IMG/VR virus record: IMGVR_UViG_2778261128_000006
Origin: a virus
Taxonomy: Duplodnaviria; Heunggongvirae; Uroviricota; Caudoviricetes
Reading direction: 5' to 3' (one strand)
DNA length: 22,569 nucleotides
Position 1 is the first letter of the stretch. Every line of letters starts with the position of its first letter. The position numbers and the translations under genes are program-made. Of this stretch, positions 3,911 to 11,855 are shown piece after piece. The notes under the pieces were generated by a model. It ran no database searches. It saw only the letters and a list, made by a program, of their open reading frames with translations, and was not told the DNA's origin.

Positions 3911-4764
3911 GCACCATCCTGAAATGGGCGGGTAATAAAACCGCCATTATGTCCGAACTGAAAAAATACCTTCCTGCTGGCCCGCGACTGGTTGAACCTT
4001 TCGCGGGTTCTTGTGCTGTGATGATGGCGACGGATTACCCCAGCTATCTGGTTGCGGATATTAATCCTGATTTAATCAACCTCTATAAAAAGATTGCCGC
4101 TGATTGCGAAGCGTTTATATCTCGTGCCAAAGTTTTATTTGAGGAAGCAAACAGTGAGCTGGCTTATTACAACATAAGACAGGAGTTTAATTACTCAACT
4201 GAAATTACTGATTTCATGAAGGCGATATATTTCCTGTATCTCAATCGTCACGGTTACCGTGGTTTATGTCGCTATAACAAGAGCGGGTATTTCAACATTC
4301 CCTACGGTAATTATAAAAATCCGTATTTCCCTGAAAAAGAAATTCGCGCATTTGCAGAGAAAGCCCAGCGGGCAACGTTTATCTGCGCGAGCTTTGATGA
4401 AACGCTGGCGATGCTGCAGGTGGGGGATGTGGTGTATTGCGATCCGCCGTATGACGGTACGTTTTCCGGCTATCACACTGATGGTTTCACTGAAGATGAC
4501 CAGTATCACCTGGCATCCATTCTTGAACATCGGTCATCAGAAGGACATCCGGTCATTGTTTCTAACAATGACACATCCCTGATTCGTTCGCTGTATCGCA
4601 ATTTTACTCACCACTATATCAAGGCAAAACGCAGCATCGGCGTGTCAGCTGGCGAGGGTAAATCTGCAACAGAAATCATTGCTGTTTCCGGGCCGAGCTG
4701 CTGGTTGGGATTTGATCCTTCGCGTGGCGTGGATAGTTCTGCCGTGTACGGAGTGTGTGTATGA
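3907..4764 (+). CDS. dam: DNA N6-adenine methyltransferase (Dam-like, D12 class)
   Basis: N-terminal KWAGNK...FAGS AdoMet-binding motif and catalytic DPPY motif ([10 protein letters not shown]); ATG at 3907 after GGAGG. Confidence 0.85.
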
Positions 4765-7175
4765 GTCATGACGATATGAACTATTGCAGCGGCTTTAACG
4801 AGGCCGCCGCAGCATTTTCATGGAACGGCTCGAAAAAGGCCATTAACCCTTATCTGGACCCGGCGGAAGTTGCGCCGGAGTCTGCACTTTCAAACCTGAT
4901 CACTCTGTACGCTGCCGATAACGAGCAGGAACAACTGCGCCGCGAGGCACTGAGTGAGCAGGTCTGGGAGCGTTATTTCTTTAATGAATCCCGTGATCCT
5001 GTCCAGCGCGAAATGGAGCAGGATAAGCTCATTAGCCGGGCAAAGCTGGCGCATGAGCAGCAGCGTTTTAATCCGGACATGGTCATTCTGGCGGACGTAA
5101 ACGCCCAGCCTTCCCATATCAGCAAGCCGCTGATGCAACGTATTGAATACTTCAGCAGCCTGGGCAGGCCAAAGGCTTATTCCCGCTATTTGCGTGAGAC
5201 GATTAAGCCATGTCTGGAGCGACTGGATTGTGTACGTGACAGTCAGCTATCTGTTTCTTTCCGTTTTATGGCAAGCCATCAAGGGCTGGAGGGTCTGCTG
5301 ATCCTGCCTGAAATGAGCCAGGATCAGGTGAAACGCCTGTCCACCCTGGTAGCAGCGCATATGAGCATGTGTCTTGAGGACGCTTGTGGTGATTTGTATG
5401 CCACCGATGACGTTAAGCCAGAAGAAATCCGCAAGACATGGGAAAAGGTGGCAGCGGAAACCCTGCGTCTGGATGTTATCCCGCCTGCGTTTGAGAAACT
5501 TCGTCGGAAAATAAACCGCCGCAAACCAGTGCTCTATGAACTCATCCCGGGTTCGCTGGCGCGTATGTTGTGTGCCGACTGGTGGTATCGGAAATTATGG
5601 AAGATGCGTTGCGAATGGCGGGAAGAGCAGTTGCGTGCTGTCTGCCTGGTCAGCAAAAAAGCATCCCCCTATGTCAGCTATGAAGCCGTGATGCATAAAC
5701 GTGAGCAGCGCCGTAAGTCGCTGGAGTTTTTTCGTTCTCATGAACTGGTGAACGAAGACGGCGACACGCTGGATATGGAAGATGTGGTAAACGCCAGCAG
5801 CAGCAACCCGGCGCATCGCCGCAATGAGATGATGGCCTGTGTTAAAGGTCTGGAGCTTATCGCGGAAATGCGCAGTGACTGTGCCGTTTTCTACACTATC
5901 ACCTGTCCGTCGCGTTTCCATTCCACGCTCAATAACGGCAGACCAAACCCGACCTGGACAAACGCGACGGTAAGACAAAGTAGCGATTATCTGGTCGGCA
6001 TGTTTGCTGCATTTCGTAAGGCTATGCATAAAGCCGAGTTGCGCTGGTATGGCGTGCGGGTAGCTGAGCCGCATCATGACGGTACTGTGCACTGGCATCT
6101 CATGTGTTTCATGCGTAAAAAAGACCGCCGCGCCATCACTGCATTACTGCGTAAGTTTGCCATCCGTGAAGACCGCGAGGAGCTGGGCAATAACACGGGA
6201 CCACGCTTTAAGTCTGAGCTGATAAACCCGCGCAAAGGTACGCCAACAAGCTATATCGCGAAATACATCAGTAAGAACATTGACGGGCGTGGTCTGGCTG
6301 GGGAGATCAGCAAGGAAACGGGTAAATCCCTGCGTGATAACGCTGAATACGTTAATGCCTGGGCGTCTCTGCATCGTGTTCAGCAATTCCGCTTCTTTGG
6401 CATTCCGGGGCGTCAGGCTTACCGTGAACTGCGATTGCTGGCTGGTCAGGCGGCAAGGCAACAGGGTGACAAAAAAGCAGGTGCGCCGGTACTGGATAAC
6501 CCGCGTCTTGATGCAATCCTGGCTGCTGCTGATGCTGGTTGTTTTGCCACCTACATCATGAAGCAGGGCGGCGTACTGGTTCCCCGCAAATATCACCTCA
6601 TCAGAACTGCTTATGAAATCAACGAAGAACCGACCGCATATGGCGATCACGGTATTCGTATTTATGGCATCTGGTCACCCATTGCAGAGGGCAAGATCTG
6701 CACTCATGCGGTGAAGTGGAAAATGGTTCGTAAGGCCGTTGACGTTCAGGAGGCGGCAGCCGACCAGGGCGCTTGCGCCCCTTGGACTCGTGGCAATAAC
6801 TGTCCCCTTGCTGAAAATTTGAACCAACAAGGGAAAGACAAATCAGCTGATGGGGACTCCAGAACGGATATTACCCGTATGAATGACAAGGAGTTGCACA
6901 ATTACCTGCACAGTATGAGCAAAAAAGAGCGCCGGGAACTGGCTGCAAGGTTACGCCAGGTGAAACCGAAACGGCGTAAAGACTACAAACAGCGAATTAC
7001 AGACCATCAGCGACAGCAGCTCGTCTATGAACTGAAGTCCAGGGGATTTGATGGCAGCGAGAAAGAAGTCGATTTGCTCCTTCGCGGCGGCAGTATTCCG
7101 TCAGGAGCAGGCCTGCGTATCTTCTATCGGAACCAGCGTCTGAAGGAAGATGATAAGTGGCGGAACCTGTATTAA
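4755..7175 (+). CDS. A: P2 gpA-type replication initiation endonuclease
   Basis: About 800-aa ORF at the position of gene A in P2/186; rolling-circle initiator-like region around [10 protein letters not shown] with downstream tyrosines (YIAKYISK); start may be ATG 4755 or 4761. Confidence 0.85.
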
Positions 7176-7267
7176 TTACGCGGGTTGACAATTCGTGCTC
7201 TTAATAATACCAGGCATATCAGGCCGATGAACGTAAAAAAACGTTTTACATCAGTAAGATTATTATA

Positions 7268-7287
7268 TACTGTAAATATAAACAGTG
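7268..7287. promoter_or_regulatory. LexA SOS box (CTGT-N8-ACAG)
   Basis: TACTGTAAATATAAACAGTG: CTGT at 7270-7273, 8-nt AT-rich spacer, ACAG at 7282-7285; a second partial half-site (GTATACAG) follows; just upstream of strong RBS AGGAGG and ATG 7328. Confidence 0.6.
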
Positions 7288-7327
7288 GTTATGTATACAG
7301 TATTGTTTTGGTGTCATAGGAGGAAAG

Positions 7328-7516
7328 ATGCAGGACTATTTTTTGGAGTCTTTGAAGCTCCAGCGCATTGATTTTTTTCTTAAGCTTGTAGCGGCTAGTG
7401 AGTGTAGTGATGAAGAGAAGGGGCTGGCTCTGCAGTGGGTTTCTGAATTGACTGATGAACTCATGGCAAAAATCAGAAGCCACGAATACAACCGCTCAAT
7501 GGATGTCATCAGCTGA
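7328..7516 (+). CDS. Small protein downstream of LexA box; possible N-terminal part of a Tum-like antirepressor
   Basis: 62-aa ORF with strong RBS (TAGGAGGAAAG ATG); overlaps in another frame with the upstream extension of the DinI-like ORF. Confidence 0.4.
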   Translation: MQDYFLESLKLQRIDFFLKLVAASECSDEEKGLALQWVSELTDELMAKIRSHEYNRSMDVIS

Positions 7517-7526
7517 GGTGACTTTT

Positions 7527-7760
7527 ATGCGCATTGAAATAATGATCGATAAAGAGCAGAAGATTAGCCAGTCTACCCTGGACGCCCTTGAATCCGAGCT
7601 TTACCGCAATCTGCGCCCCCTGTATCCCAAAACGGTAATTCGCATTCGCAAAGGTAGCTCTAACGGTGTGGAACTAACCGGACTGCAACTGGATGAAGAA
7701 AGAAAACAAGTGATGAAAATTATGCAGAAGGTGTGGGAGGACGACAGCTGGCTGCATTAA
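7527..7760 (+). CDS. DinI-like protein (DNA-damage-inducible protein I family)
   Basis: 77 aa starting MRIEIMIDKEQ...; resembles DinI (MRIEVTIAK... with C-terminal W-E-D-W acidic tail) from memory; under LexA box. Confidence 0.7.
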   Translation: MRIEIMIDKEQKISQSTLDALESELYRNLRPLYPKTVIRIRKGSSNGVELTGLQLDEERKQVMKIMQKVWEDDSWLH

Positions 7761-7952
7761 GAAATGTTGCCCCCAGGAGGATTCATTCTGATGGGGGCTA
7801 GTTTGGGCAATGAGTGAAATAAGGCGTAAGGTGGGCGGTTATTTTGATAAGTGATCGTCCGCTTTGTGTCAGAAGCAGAAGTGGGAGTGTCTGAGACTCT
7901 CTAAAAGTTGATGATTCACTTACAAAACCATTTTCCTGATGGATGCTTACAC

Positions 7953-8288
7953 TTACGAATGATCATTCTGTTTAGTCTTCATGAGAAAATCCCGAATCTT
8001 TGCCAAGTTTGAATTTTCGGGGATTGAATCCATGTACGGATCACGCTCAAACACTAATTGCTCAGATTCAACGAAAGCCTGCCACTCTACTGGGTCTAGC
8101 TCAAATCCCATTGCTGTCATATCACTTTCATCTTCCCCCTCGATCCAGTGGACTAAATAAAACAATTCATCATCAGGAGAATCATCCTCACCATCAACAA
8201 TATCAACATCGGTTACAGTGATACGTAGGGTGGGATCGATTTTTGAGACATAAATTCCTAACTGTGGTATAGGGGGAATATTGTTCAT
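7953..8288 (-). CDS. Highly acidic hypothetical protein (111 aa)
   Basis: Minus-strand ORF with AAGGAG RBS 7 nt upstream of ATG; D/E-rich (stretches DGEDDSPDDE, EGEDESD); divergent from retron operon. Confidence 0.6.
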   Translation of the reverse strand: MNNIPPIPQLGIYVSKIDPTLRITVTDVDIVDGEDDSPDDELFYLVHWIEGEDESDMTAMGFELDPVEWQAFVESEQLVFERDPYMDSIPENSNLAKIRDFLMKTKQNDHS

Positions 8289-8760
8289 GGAAACTCCTTT
8301 TATTGGTGTTTGCTATTTGAATAAAAATACGCCAAACAGAGTGTTAACTGTGAATATGGAAAGAATCGTTGTAAGTACCCCGCTTAGGTGTCCCATTCTA
8401 TTTTAGAGGTTCTCGTGCATATGGATTATGTTATCTGAAAGTTAACTTCCGCTTCCCGTTCACAGCGAACATTCATCTTTGTAAACCCGTATGATCCGTT
8501 TTTCAAGTGGCCATTCAGATACGGATTTTCACTTCCTTGACAGTGCATGACTATGCTGCATGAAATCGCATGATCGATTGAGGATCGTCTTTGCTCAGAT
8601 CCGCCAGAACTGGCGGGCTTTTGCTCATGTTATGCATGTGCATGAAAACCACTGCATAAAGCGGGCAGGCGTGGCGGGGATACGAGCGCGCGCCATGTGG
8701 TATGGAGATTGGATCTATTCATAACTTGATGTATAAAGTAGAAAAAAAAGCGGGGAGATT

Positions 8761-9684
8761 ATGAATAAAAAATTTACCGATGAGCAGCAACAACAGCTTA
8801 TAGGACATCTCACAAAGAAAGGCTTCTATCGAGGAGCTAATATTAAAATAACCATTTTTCTATGTGGTGGTGACGTTGCTAATCATCAATCTTGGCGTCA
8901 TCAATTATCACAATTTTTAGCAAAGTTCAGTGATGTTGATATATTTTATCCAGAAGATCTATTTGATGATCTTTTGGCTGGTCAAGGGCAGCATAGCCTT
9001 TTAAGTTTAGAAAATATTCTGGCTGAAGCTGTCGATGTAATAATTTTATTTCCTGAAAGTCCGGGGTCTTTCACAGAGCTTGGTGCGTTCTCTAATAATG
9101 AAAACTTAAGGAGAAAGTTGATTTGCATTCAAGATGCAAAATTTAAATCAAAACGTAGCTTTATTAACTATGGTCCTGTTCGCCTGTTGCGTAAGTTTAA
9201 TTCAAAATCTGTTTTGCGTTGTAGTTCAAATGAACTAAAAGAAATGTGTGATTCATCTATTGATGTTGCCAGAAAATTACGATTATATAAAAAATTAATG
9301 GCATCTATTAAGAAGGTTAGGAAAGAAAATAAAGTATCAAAAGATATTGGAAATATATTATACGCAGAGCGGTTTCTATTGCCTTGTATCTATTTACTGG
9401 ATAGTGTCAACTACCGCACACTGTGTGAACTAGCTTTTAAAGCGATAAAGCAAGATGATGTTTTATCTAAAATTATTGTTAGATCCGTTGTTTCTCGTCT
9501 AATAAATGAACGAAAAATACTTCAAATGACTGATGGTTATCAGGTCACTGCTTTGGGGGCTAGCTATGTTAGGAGCGTCTTTGATAGAAAGACACTTGAC
9601 CGATTGCGGCTTGAGATTATGAATTTTGAAAACCGTAGAAAATCAACATTTAACTATGATAAGATTCCGTATGCGCACCCTTAG
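8761..9684 (+). CDS. Retron effector, nucleoside 2-deoxyribosyltransferase-like (NDT) protein with C-terminal basic domain
   Basis: 307-aa AT-rich ORF directly upstream of msr-msd and RT; Rossmann-like N-terminal region (KITIFLCGG ... VIILFPESPGSFTELG); its 3' end overlaps the a1 repeat; matches the Retron-Eco1 effector as I recall it. Confidence 0.8.
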   Translation: MNKKFTDEQQQQLIGHLTKKGFYRGANIKITIFLCGGDVANHQSWRHQLSQFLAKFSDVDIFYPEDLFDDLLAGQGQHSLLSLENILAEAVDVIILFPESPGSFTELGAFSNNENLRRKLICIQDAKFKSKRSFINYGPVRLLRKFNSKSVLRCSSNELKEMCDSSIDVARKLRLYKKLMASIKKVRKENKVSKDIGNILYAERFLLPCIYLLDSVNYRTLCELAFKAIKQDDVLSKIIVRSVVSRLINERKILQMTDGYQVTALGASYVRSVFDRKTLDRLRLEIMNFENRRKSTFNYDKIPYAHP

Positions 9685-9840
9685 CGAGAGGTTTATCATT
9701 AAGGTCAACCTCTGGATGTTGTTTCGGCATCCTGCATTGAATCTGAGTTACTGTCTGTTTTCCTTGTTGGAACGGAGAGCATCGCCTGATGCTCTCCGAG
9801 CCAACCAGGAAACCCGTTTTTTCTGACGTAAGGGTGCGCA
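9672..9840 (+). ncRNA. msr-msd: Retron msr-msd non-coding RNA (Ec86/Eco1-type) flanked by a1/a2 inverted repeats
   Basis: a1 TGCGCACCCTTA at 9672-9683 and a2 TAAGGGTGCGCA at 9829-9840 are perfect inverted repeats; long msd hairpin 9760-9811 (24-bp arms around GCCT loop); sequence matches the Ec86 ncRNA as I remember it from retron editing constructs. Confidence 0.85.
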
Positions 9841-9846
9841 ACTTTC

Positions 9847-10809
9847 ATGAAATCCGCTGAATATTTGAACACTTTTAGATTGAGAAATCTCGGCCTACCT
9901 GTCATGAACAATTTGCATGACATGTCTAAGGCGACTCGCATATCTGTTGAAACACTTCGGTTGTTAATCTATACAGCTGATTTTCGCTATAGGATCTACA
10001 CTGTAGAAAAGAAAGGCCCAGAGAAGAGAATGAGAACCATTTACCAACCTTCTCGAGAACTTAAAGCCTTACAAGGATGGGTTCTACGTAACATTTTAGA
10101 TAAACTGTCGTCATCTCCTTTTTCTATTGGATTTGAAAAGCACCAATCTATTTTGAATAATGCTACCCCGCATATTGGGGCAAACTTTATACTGAATATT
10201 GATTTGGAGGATTTTTTCCCAAGTTTAACTGCTAACAAAGTTTTTGGAGTGTTCCATTCTCTTGGTTATAATCGACTAATATCTTCAGTTTTGACAAAAA
10301 TATGTTGTTATAAAAATCTGCTACCACAAGGTGCTCCATCATCACCTAAATTAGCTAATCTAATATGTTCTAAACTTGATTATCGTATTCAGGGTTATGC
10401 AGGTAGTCGGGGCTTGATATATACGAGATATGCCGATGATCTCACCTTATCTGCACAGTCTATGAAAAAGGTTGTTAAAGCACGTGATTTTTTATTTTCT
10501 ATAATCCCAAGTGAAGGATTGGTTATTAACTCAAAAAAAACTTGTATTAGTGGGCCTCGTAGTCAGAGGAAAGTTACAGGTTTAGTTATTTCACAAGAGA
10601 AAGTTGGGATAGGTAGAGAAAAATATAAAGAAATTAGAGCAAAGATACATCATATATTTTGCGGTAAGTCTTCTGAGATAGAACACGTTAGGGGATGGTT
10701 GTCATTTATTTTAAGTGTGGATTCAAAAAGCCATAGGAGATTAATAACTTATATTAGCAAATTAGAAAAAAAATATGGAAAGAACCCTTTAAATAAAGCG
10801 AAGACCTAA
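9847..10809 (+). CDS. ret: Retron reverse transcriptase (Ec86/Eco1-type, 320 aa)
   Basis: RT motifs including YADD (RYADDLTLS) and retron-specific VTG (RKVTGLVI); length and sequence match Ec86 RT from memory. Confidence 0.95.
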   Translation: MKSAEYLNTFRLRNLGLPVMNNLHDMSKATRISVETLRLLIYTADFRYRIYTVEKKGPEKRMRTIYQPSRELKALQGWVLRNILDKLSSSPFSIGFEKHQSILNNATPHIGANFILNIDLEDFFPSLTANKVFGVFHSLGYNRLISSVLTKICCYKNLLPQGAPSSPKLANLICSKLDYRIQGYAGSRGLIYTRYADDLTLSAQSMKKVVKARDFLFSIIPSEGLVINSKKTCISGPRSQRKVTGLVISQEKVGIGREKYKEIRAKIHHIFCGKSSEIEHVRGWLSFILSVDSKSHRRLITYISKLEKKYGKNPLNKAKT

Positions 10810-10822
10810 TGGTCTTCGTTTT
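10799..10822. terminator. Bidirectional hairpin terminator between retron RT and portal gene Q
   Basis: CGAAGACC / TAAT / GGTCTTCG perfect 8-bp stem spanning the RT stop codon, followed by TTTT on plus strand and T-rich run on the minus strand. Confidence 0.5.
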
Positions 10823-10826
10823 AAAA

Positions 10827-11855
10827 CTAAAGCTCATAGGTTGAAAAATTGAGCACTTCTTCGTCCAACCAGTTATTTAGTTCCTGCAATCGTTTCTGCA
10901 GGGGCATCAATTCGTTTCTTACGAATACCTTGCTAGCCTTCTCCACATCCCCAAACCCCCCGACATTATTAGGCATAATTCCCATCATTTGCGGCGGCAC
11001 GCGGTGTGCCGCCATCATGTCATCACGGCTCACGTTCTTGATATTCAGAAACTCATCCTTCGCTGTGACTTCTGACAACGGGATAATCTGAAGTCCGTCT
11101 TTTTTACCATTAGGCGAGTACATAAACAGGTTGCGGAAGTTGCCAGGGCCTTTGGCACTTTTCATCGCATTGCGGAGGTTGTTCACATCTTCCTGGTTCT
11201 GCGCGGCATCGGTCATGTACATGATGAAGCCTGCATGACTACCGTTAATGTAATACTTTCGGCGGAACAGCGTGGCGGACTCGTTGAGCAGGGCGGATGG
11301 GATGGCAGAAAGATAGCCGGGCAGGCCGTAGATCTCCTGGTTGATGTCCGGTTCCATCAGATGAAAAATGCTGCCTTTCGTGAACTGATACGGCTGCGTG
11401 GTCATGCCGTATTGCACAAACCAGTAGGTATCTAGGTCTAATCCGCGTCGGGTGTATTTTGCCAGCGCAGGCTCAAGGGCGATAACTTCACCGAATCGGT
11501 TCGTGCGTTTCTCCAGGTAGGCGTTACCAAAAACCAGATAGTCCTGCACAAAACGTGAAAACGCCTGCTGGCTGAGCAGCGGGTGAGGGATGTAGGTGCT
11601 GGTCAGAATGTTGCACTTTACTGCAATCGGTGAACTGTGGTGTACGGCGGCGCGGAATGTTCGCGCCAGTCCGTCAAAACTTACGGGTGGCTCATACCAG
11701 CGGTCCATCTTTACGCATTCCACATAGTCCAGTAATTCGCGGCGGTCCAGAACAGGAACGGGATCACCGAAGCTGAATGCTTCGGCTGAAGTTTGGTTTT
11801 TATGCTGGATCTGGTTCGTCGCCGCAGCGCGGTTTTTCTTACTCTTTCCCATCAA
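10827..11855 (-). CDS. Q: Phage portal protein (P2 gpQ-like)
   Basis: 342 aa, minus strand, directly downstream of terminase gene in a P-Q operon; size and order as in P2. Confidence 0.8.
   Translation of the reverse strand: MMGKSKKNRAAATNQIQHKNQTSAEAFSFGDPVPVLDRRELLDYVECVKMDRWYEPPVSFDGLARTFRAAVHHSSPIAVKCNILTSTYIPHPLLSQQAFSRFVQDYLVFGNAYLEKRTNRFGEVIALEPALAKYTRRGLDLDTYWFVQYGMTTQPYQFTKGSIFHLMEPDINQEIYGLPGYLSAIPSALLNESATLFRRKYYINGSHAGFIMYMTDAAQNQEDVNNLRNAMKSAKGPGNFRNLFMYSPNGKKDGLQIIPLSEVTAKDEFLNIKNVSRDDMMAAHRVPPQMMGIMPNNVGGFGDVEKASKVFVRNELMPLQKRLQELNNWLDEEVLNFSTYEL

Follow-up and report, generated by a model that had tools for sequence, protein, structure and literature searches.

In phage P2, the interval between orf91/tum and cos is occupied by tin (762 bp) and old (1761 bp), which are transcribed leftward from ~150 bp left of cos, and phage 186 carries orf97 (732 bp) in the same slot, annotated "blocks 186 infection" when expressed. 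These genes are non-essential cargo that varies between otherwise near-identical prophages. The locus is known as the P2 "gpA-gpQ" hotspot adjoining cos (PMC9122126), and the reported defence hotspots include both of the P2 positions at which genes of the DUF8087 family occur (PMC13586616). Retron Ec86/Eco1 belongs to type II-A3, and systematic surveys give retrons of this type an NDT-like protein as their only partner (PMC7736814).

We analysed a stretch of 22,569 nucleotides (the window; IMG/VR record IMGVR_UViG_2778261128_000006), in which a first-pass annotation had singled out a strongly acidic ORF and a motif-rich gap beside a retron. The window represents the P2-like prophage that carries retron Ec86 in E. 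coli B. Positions 7200-10850 are 100% identical to genomes of the E. coli B lineage (BL21(DE3), REL606 and others), and the RefSeq gene order reads gpA replication endonuclease, 62-aa hypothetical protein, DinI-like protein and WP_001059831.1 (the acidic ORF) in its first half, followed by the retron St85-family effector, the retron RT, the phage portal protein and the terminase. The acidic gene lies in the same slot as P2 tin/old and 186 orf97, is non-essential and variable as they are, and has the strand and direction of old-tin, reading away from cos. The earlier view of a strongly acidic accessory gene is supported, the gene being cargo of the hotspot. Its product is only 111 aa long, shares no sequence or domain similarity with Tin, Old or Orf97, and has no ATPase or nuclease domain. 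The features of the region are as follows.

7771..8539, no strand: left-of-cos cargo module, the acidic gene with 251 bp of 5' flank; from homology breakpoints and the P2/186 slot occupants
7953..8288, minus strand: coding sequence of the acidic protein, 111 aa, ATG start (WP_001059831.1; PF26332/DUF8087; phrog_17127)
8294..8298, minus strand: Shine-Dalgarno AGGAG, 5 nt before the ATG; read from the sequence
8540..8693, no strand: predicted P2/186/P4-type cos packaging region, kept in all related prophages whatever cargo flanks it
8544..8573, plus strand: three TGCAT(G) repeats (motifs 1-3 of the first-pass annotation), common to the window, P2, 186, P4 and Fels-2
8600..8617, plus strand: GC-rich palindrome (the hairpin described earlier) inside cos, TCCGCCAGAACTGGCGGG then CTTTTG; from a terminator pattern scan
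8633..8667, plus strand: TGCATGTGCATGAAAACC...AAAGCGGGC (motifs 4-5), abutting the cohesive end on its left; from an alignment of five phages
8668..8686, plus strand: predicted 19-nt cohesive end GGCGTGGCGGGGATACGAG, aligned to the annotated P2 cohesive end GGCGAGGCGGGGAAAGCAC with 15/19 identical positions
8694..10826 (slot to ~10855), plus strand: right-of-cos cargo module, retron Ec86/Eco1; from PADLOC/NCBIfam matches and breakpoints

The gpA gene is intact in the window (806 aa, 4755-7175), as it is in the prophage copy of NCTC10537. In BL21(DE3) (NC_012971.2, 874858-876303), the cII-like gene and gpA are annotated as truncated pseudogenes, which points to a deletion in that prophage, the window copy being the undeleted form. 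The window would accordingly derive from a B-lineage strain, or a related one, whose prophage is undeleted. A consensus LexA box, CTGTAAATATAAACAG, is found at 7270-7285, 5' of the ORFs at 7328-7516 (62 aa, phrog_698) and 7527-7760 (DinI-like). Box and ORFs together look like the counterpart of the SOS-controlled p95-tum antirepressor module of 186, and this tum-like module consists of two ORFs in the window, as annotated for TumA/TumB of PSP3/Fels-2. Directly past the DinI stop, at the left edge of the cargo module, lies a GC-rich inverted repeat (GCCCCCAGGAGGAT / ATTCTGATGGGGGC, 7769-7798) that may correspond to terminator t95a of 186.

The predicted cos site in the intergenic gap

The acidic ORF is separated from the ATG of the retron effector (8761) by a gap of 472 bp, which had been described as a long, motif-rich divergent region shared by the two genes. 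We found that this gap is made up of the 251-bp 5' flank of the acidic gene (8289-8539), a 154-bp core (8540-8693) and a 67-bp retron leader (8694-8760), and that the core, rather than being regulatory, is a conserved, predicted cos site of the P2/186/P4 type. The sequence features described earlier were themselves confirmed, namely five GCATG(A/T) motifs within ~100 bp (8545-8645) and a GC-rich hairpin with a short T-run at 8600-8617. The motifs start at 8545, 8558, 8568, 8634 and 8640, all on the plus strand, and five in 101 bp against ~0.11 expected (Poisson ~1e-7) indicate a real cluster. The entire window holds 25 such motifs on both strands, and shuffled sequences contain more (mean 35.6).

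Comparison of positions 8542-8693 with the non-coding DNA of 80 P2-like phages, including Fels-2, SopEphi, RE2010 and phages of Klebsiella and Yersinia, revealed 86-90% identity. The cohesive end was placed by alignment to the annotated cos of P2 (NC_001895; cosR 33575-33593, cosL 1-19), and the Fels-2 locus shares the identical 19-mer, as do all of the related prophage loci that we examined. A pattern search with the P2/186 cohesive end allowing up to three mismatches gave no match, the window differing at four positions. Abutting the cohesive end, a TGCAT(G/T)AAAACC...AAAGCGGGC block is common to all five elements; motif 5 is kept with this block in all five phages, and motif 4, an extra GCATG copy at 8634, is not. 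An inverted repeat occupies the position of the hairpin in Fels-2, 186 and P4, with different arms in P4, and is absent from P2. The region thereby resembles the cos sites of P2, 186 and P4 (Ziermann and Calendar 1990, as cited in PMC9122126) in its aligned cohesive end, its TGCAT repeats, its AAAACC block and its position relative to the A side and Q: a homologous 19-nt end lies at the A-side/Q-side junction, and the flanking signal is shared even by the satellite P4. It differs from P2 in what follows on the right: the retron cargo lies directly beside cos in the window, whereas no more than 167 bp, including the tQ terminator, separate cos from the portal gene in P2.

Taken together, these alignments identify the hairpin and all GCATG motifs but one as putative elements of the cos packaging signal, and we infer that the terminase may recognise the TGCAT repeats. 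As cos elements, neither the repeats nor the hairpin would regulate the retron or the acidic gene. To take the acidic gene for a part of retron Ec86 is a tempting misreading that is corrected here, and the repeats belong to the phage packaging site. The hairpin passes the terminator pattern scan, with a weak T-run (CTTTTG), and sits inside cos; the annotated 186 terminator t95b is a separate element located further to the left than the hairpin position. A 54-aa ORF at 8560-8724 was rejected as spurious, as it spans cos and a module breakpoint.

Two cargo slots flanking cos

Homology breakpoints bound cos on both sides, at 8540-8544 on the left and 8691-8696 on the right. E. coli W and E2348/69 carry an identical acidic gene, and they match the window from 7200 as far as 8691-8693, where homology ends, GmrSD and a DprA-like gene replacing the retron in the right slot. 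The reverse arrangement occurs in two natural E. coli isolates, JNE082640 and FDAARGOS_433, which possess the same retron (98.6-99.2% identity) without the acidic gene; in these, the match to the window starts no earlier than 8540/8544, and different genes stand left of cos in place of the acidic gene. Among retron prophages without the acidic gene, left-hand homology ends past 7770 in one (L041), and another (L042) shows no left-hand match. As judged from these sequence comparisons, the acidic gene assorts independently of the Ec86 cassette, and the cassette of the gene. We are highly confident of the cos site, of two independently swapping slots and of the independence of the acidic gene from the retron. 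The P2 "A-to-Q hotspot" is then really two cargo slots that flank cos and recombine independently, and their boundaries help to delimit defence cassettes, since only 67 bp 5' of the effector belong to the Ec86 module. With cos between the slots, packaged DNA would have the retron at its portal-gene (Q) end and the acidic gene at the opposite end.

The Ec86 module comprises the 67-bp leader, an NDT-like effector (8761-9684), the msr-msd and the RT (9847-10809). PADLOC matches (NDT_II-A, 2.7e-94; RT_II-A, 7e-128) and NCBIfam St85-family matches identify it as a type II-A retron. It begins 8 bp past the cohesive end, and the RT stop lies 17 bp from the portal stop. An Rfam search of 7000-11000 at E≤1 found nothing, including no family for the Ec86 msr-msd (9685-9846).

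The first-pass annotation had also suggested that the acidic protein could be a regulator of the retron. As a retron accessory or regulator, it would modulate the Ec86 effector, RT or msDNA via the divergent intergenic region. The two genes are adjacent in E. coli B, and among complete E. coli genomes, where the acidic gene is found in 214 (~4%) and the retron in 48, 46 carry both. Nearly all of these 46, however, are clonal laboratory B derivatives, and a wider view of the hotspot reveals a different pattern. The order DinI, acidic gene, cos, cargo, portal is shared by 27 P2-like contigs from IMG/VR, whose cos-to-portal intervals fall into 19 sequence types; the intervals range from an essentially empty 183 bp up to 2.5 kb, and Ec86 accounts for just two of them. 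The identical acidic protein adjoins at least eight cargo types (Ec86; two GmrSD variants; RTs of 646, 586 and 447 aa; an RT with an SMC-like ATPase; an AAA_21 protein; a DprA-like gene), and, overall, the acidic gene stands beside at least 19 other cargoes or none. The consistent co-occurrence with RT, ncRNA and effector that marks a component of a type II-A3 retron is therefore not seen for the acidic gene. Given this distribution, together with the occurrence of the retron without the gene, the intervening cos, the 67-bp limit of the retron module and the sole NDT-like partner given in the surveys of type II-A3 (PMC7736814), a retron accessory or regulatory role is effectively refuted, and we assign it almost no probability.

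Three P2-like contigs from IMG/VR (L067-L069) contain an extra ~1.2 kb between the DUF8087 gene and DinI, indicating room for more than a single cargo gene in the left slot.

The acidic gene and the DUF8087 family

From sequence comparison, the minus-strand 111-aa ORF at 7953-8288 is a genuine conserved gene carried as cargo by P2-like prophages, because full-length homologues with 50-98% identity occur across Enterobacterales and pairwise dN/dS among them is 0.07-0.30, indicative of purifying selection. Conservation among relatives, on which the first-pass annotation had made its case depend, is thus clear. The good ribosome-binding site that it had described is also borne out, with AGGAG 5 nt from the ATG, and AAGGA 5' of the ATG is kept in every genomic context aligned. 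The same applies to the Asp/Glu-rich composition with few basic residues: the protein contains 15 D and 11 E (26 residues, 23%) against 4 K and 3 R (7 residues), as well as 2 H, and has a net charge of ~ -19 and a pI of 4.05. The gene has a GC content of 40%, compared with 48% for the window. A sigma-70 scan combined with cross-context alignment detected no promoter at consensus threshold upstream of the acidic gene, whose own promoter presumably lies within the 251-bp 5' flank.

DUF8087 is a small family, mainly from Enterobacterales. All 61 homologues, including a 98%-identical cluster representative, carry a precomputed PF26332 match, placing the acidic protein in DUF8087 over its full length; consistent with this, the identical protein is named 'DUF8087 domain-containing protein' in recent PGAP annotation. 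The protein also matches phrog_17127 (2e-70). No match was obtained against Pfam-A (in a copy without the DUF8087 model, E≤1), and so none to an Ocr or ArdA model; NCBIfam gave no match, PADLOC-DB 2.0 gave 0 defence families at E≤1, and profile searches of PDB sequences yielded nothing credible. Pfam searches with 43 relatives returned scattered noise only, with no Pfam-A match at E≤1 reported for the comparison with Ocr and ArdA. An exhaustive HMMER search of 1.8 billion representatives retrieved only 34 relatives, all small (70-130 aa) and acidic and matching the beta-rich core (residues 5-80), and no link from DUF8087 to a known family. Confident homology to a housekeeping phage protein, which would have spoken against the first-pass annotation, was accordingly not found, nor was similarity to any characterised family. 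A literature search for DUF8087, WP_001059831, phrog_17127 and PF26332 found no papers, and the P2 hotspot table of Rousset et al. enters WP_001059831 as 'hypothetical', outside their tested set.

Acidity is present in every family member collected, with a median pI of 4.05 across all collected relatives and a net charge of -8 to -19 in the distant relatives listed. Short relatives can dispense with the most acidic loop (residues 31-41), and the conserved positions are P8, G11, Y13 and an ELDPxEW motif. The protein has no signal peptide and no membrane segment. An AlphaFold2 model built with 40 sequences (pLDDT 78, pTM 0.64) contains five strands and two helices (66-76 and, at the C-terminus, 94-108), and the predicted fold is a small SH3/Tudor-like beta-barrel that bears two acidic loops as well as the C-terminal helix. 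The top structural matches to the predicted core (~11-82), weak and generic, were DUF1653 (PDB 3be3), FeoA, EF-P domain I and the CarD N-terminus, which are SH3/Tudor-like small beta-barrels, as the core is predicted to be. A BFVD fold search with the predicted structure returned nothing below E=0.01.

Ocr (T7 gp0.3) and ArdA are likewise small, cytoplasmic, very acidic (pI ~4) and encoded by mobile elements. Ocr is built entirely of helices and forms a dimer, and ArdA has three domains. The acidic protein shows no HMM match to either, is a beta-barrel by prediction, and retrieved neither of them among its fold-search matches, so that on the model it would not share their fold. The Ocr/ArdA-like profile proposed earlier consequently stands for charge but not for sequence or predicted fold. 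The distribution of the gene also differs from theirs: tblastn of 50,697 deposited phage genomes gave no DUF8087 match, and among 72,556 plasmids the gene was found on one, a non-mobilizable 45-kb record, and on no conjugative plasmid.

DUF8087 genes occupy several other kinds of site. In Klebsiella and two more divergent lineages, the gene resides in P2-like prophages between an HTH repressor and the integrase, directly 3' of a Flk_N-like gene (phrog_5825) and with all genes on one strand. The Flk_N-like protein, ~210 aa long with a hydrophobic C-terminal tail (L010 5343-5990, L030 4341-4970, L029 506-1135), may be a functional partner of DUF8087. In E. coli (NZ_CP099754.1, 2899857-2936537), a 90%-identical variant belongs to an island at ychF that is bounded by an integrase; this island also holds a 1590-aa DEAD/DEAH helicase, a 1727-aa NACHT protein, an AAA ATPase, RadC and several IS elements, and looks like a defence island. 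Further copies occur in a Providencia island, next to the remains of a filamentous phage in Xenorhabdus, within a small gpA/integrase element of Nitrosospira and at one end of another prophage. Lone intact copies adjoin pgsA-uvrC in Pantoea and relatives (L031-L034, L039-L040; 5001-5294 / 6001-6309), and comparison of the two Pantoea types gives a dN/dS of 0.19. In Klebsiella, P2-like prophages have inserted beside the same pgsA-uvrC genes, and the lone copies suggest a DUF8087 gene retained after prophage loss. Across unrelated contexts, only ~120-170 bp upstream and ~50 bp downstream travel with the gene.

Possible roles of the acidic protein

Our best overall explanation, to which we give somewhat better than even chances, is a P2-like prophage with cos between two slots and an acidic gene that encodes a binding protein expressed in the lysogen. 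The gene would be a stand-alone accessory gene expressed from the prophage, because its slot and orientation match those of old-tin and because of its repressor-integrase operon position in other phages. Since catalytic, membrane and DNA-binding features are absent, the protein would most likely bind, stoichiometrically, a positively charged and probably nucleic-acid-binding target protein, although an acidic composition alone is no proof of binding to a basic target. Such binding might serve lysogenic conversion in conflicts among phages or mobile elements, such as the exclusion of another phage or satellite by sequestering its protein or a host factor that it needs. This role in conversion or exclusion is a tentative proposal, with a probability well under one half. 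We favour it because the gene is restricted to integrated elements, occurs in lysogeny operons and known defence hotspots, and persists as a lone host copy in Pantoea; by likelihood it is followed by a counter-defence mimic and then by a prophage or host regulator. A counter-defence or other conflict role is possible, and nothing shown here is evidence for the gene as a new mechanism.

A bolder and rather doubtful proposal is that DUF8087 constitutes a new single-gene conflict family, an SH3-like, highly acidic decoy or nucleic-acid mimic that P2-like prophages and islands would express to neutralise a DNA/RNA-binding protein of a competing phage, satellite or host defence. If this is true, the DUF8087 fold and family would be new among DNA mimics and exclusion factors, and present in BL21. 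The gene sits in every BL21/REL606 culture used in phage and retron work, and, should it influence phage growth, those experiments would contain a hidden variable.

The extreme, family-wide negative charge, the small size and the absence of catalytic motifs are also compatible with a counter-defence DNA mimic that, functioning like Ocr or ArdA, would block host restriction or another DNA-targeting defence on entry. CarS of Myxococcus is an SH3-like acidic DNA mimic, and the predicted SH3-like fold of the acidic protein would be compatible with mimicry. Moreover, several kinds of mobile element carry DUF8087, and the Providencia copy lies ~4 kb from a cluster of Antirestrict (PF03230) and DUF932. 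We consider this reading unlikely.

Still less probable is a regulator of the prophage or host, working either with the tail-anchored Flk_N-like protein or as an SOS/repressor modulator near Tum/DinI, that would tune induction or host physiology. The repeated pairing of Flk_N-like and DUF8087 genes, which three divergent lineages have between repressor and integrase, the hydrophobic tail of the Flk_N-like protein, and the weak fold likeness to Tudor/SH3 domains that bind RNA polymerase or proteins, the CarD N-terminus among them, would fit this reading, and in the window the gene adjoins the LexA-boxed tum/DinI module. However, the acidic gene is convergent with the tum/DinI operon and forms no part of it, and the Flk_N-like gene is absent from the window and from the island contexts, so the protein must be able to act alone.

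Finally, it is very improbable that the ORF is a functionless hitch-hiker, as the lack of a known domain and of a detected promoter might suggest, given dN/dS values of 0.07-0.30 across lineages, the retention of the core residues P8, G11, Y13 and W69, a strong ribosome-binding site, and intact copies in several genera and contexts.
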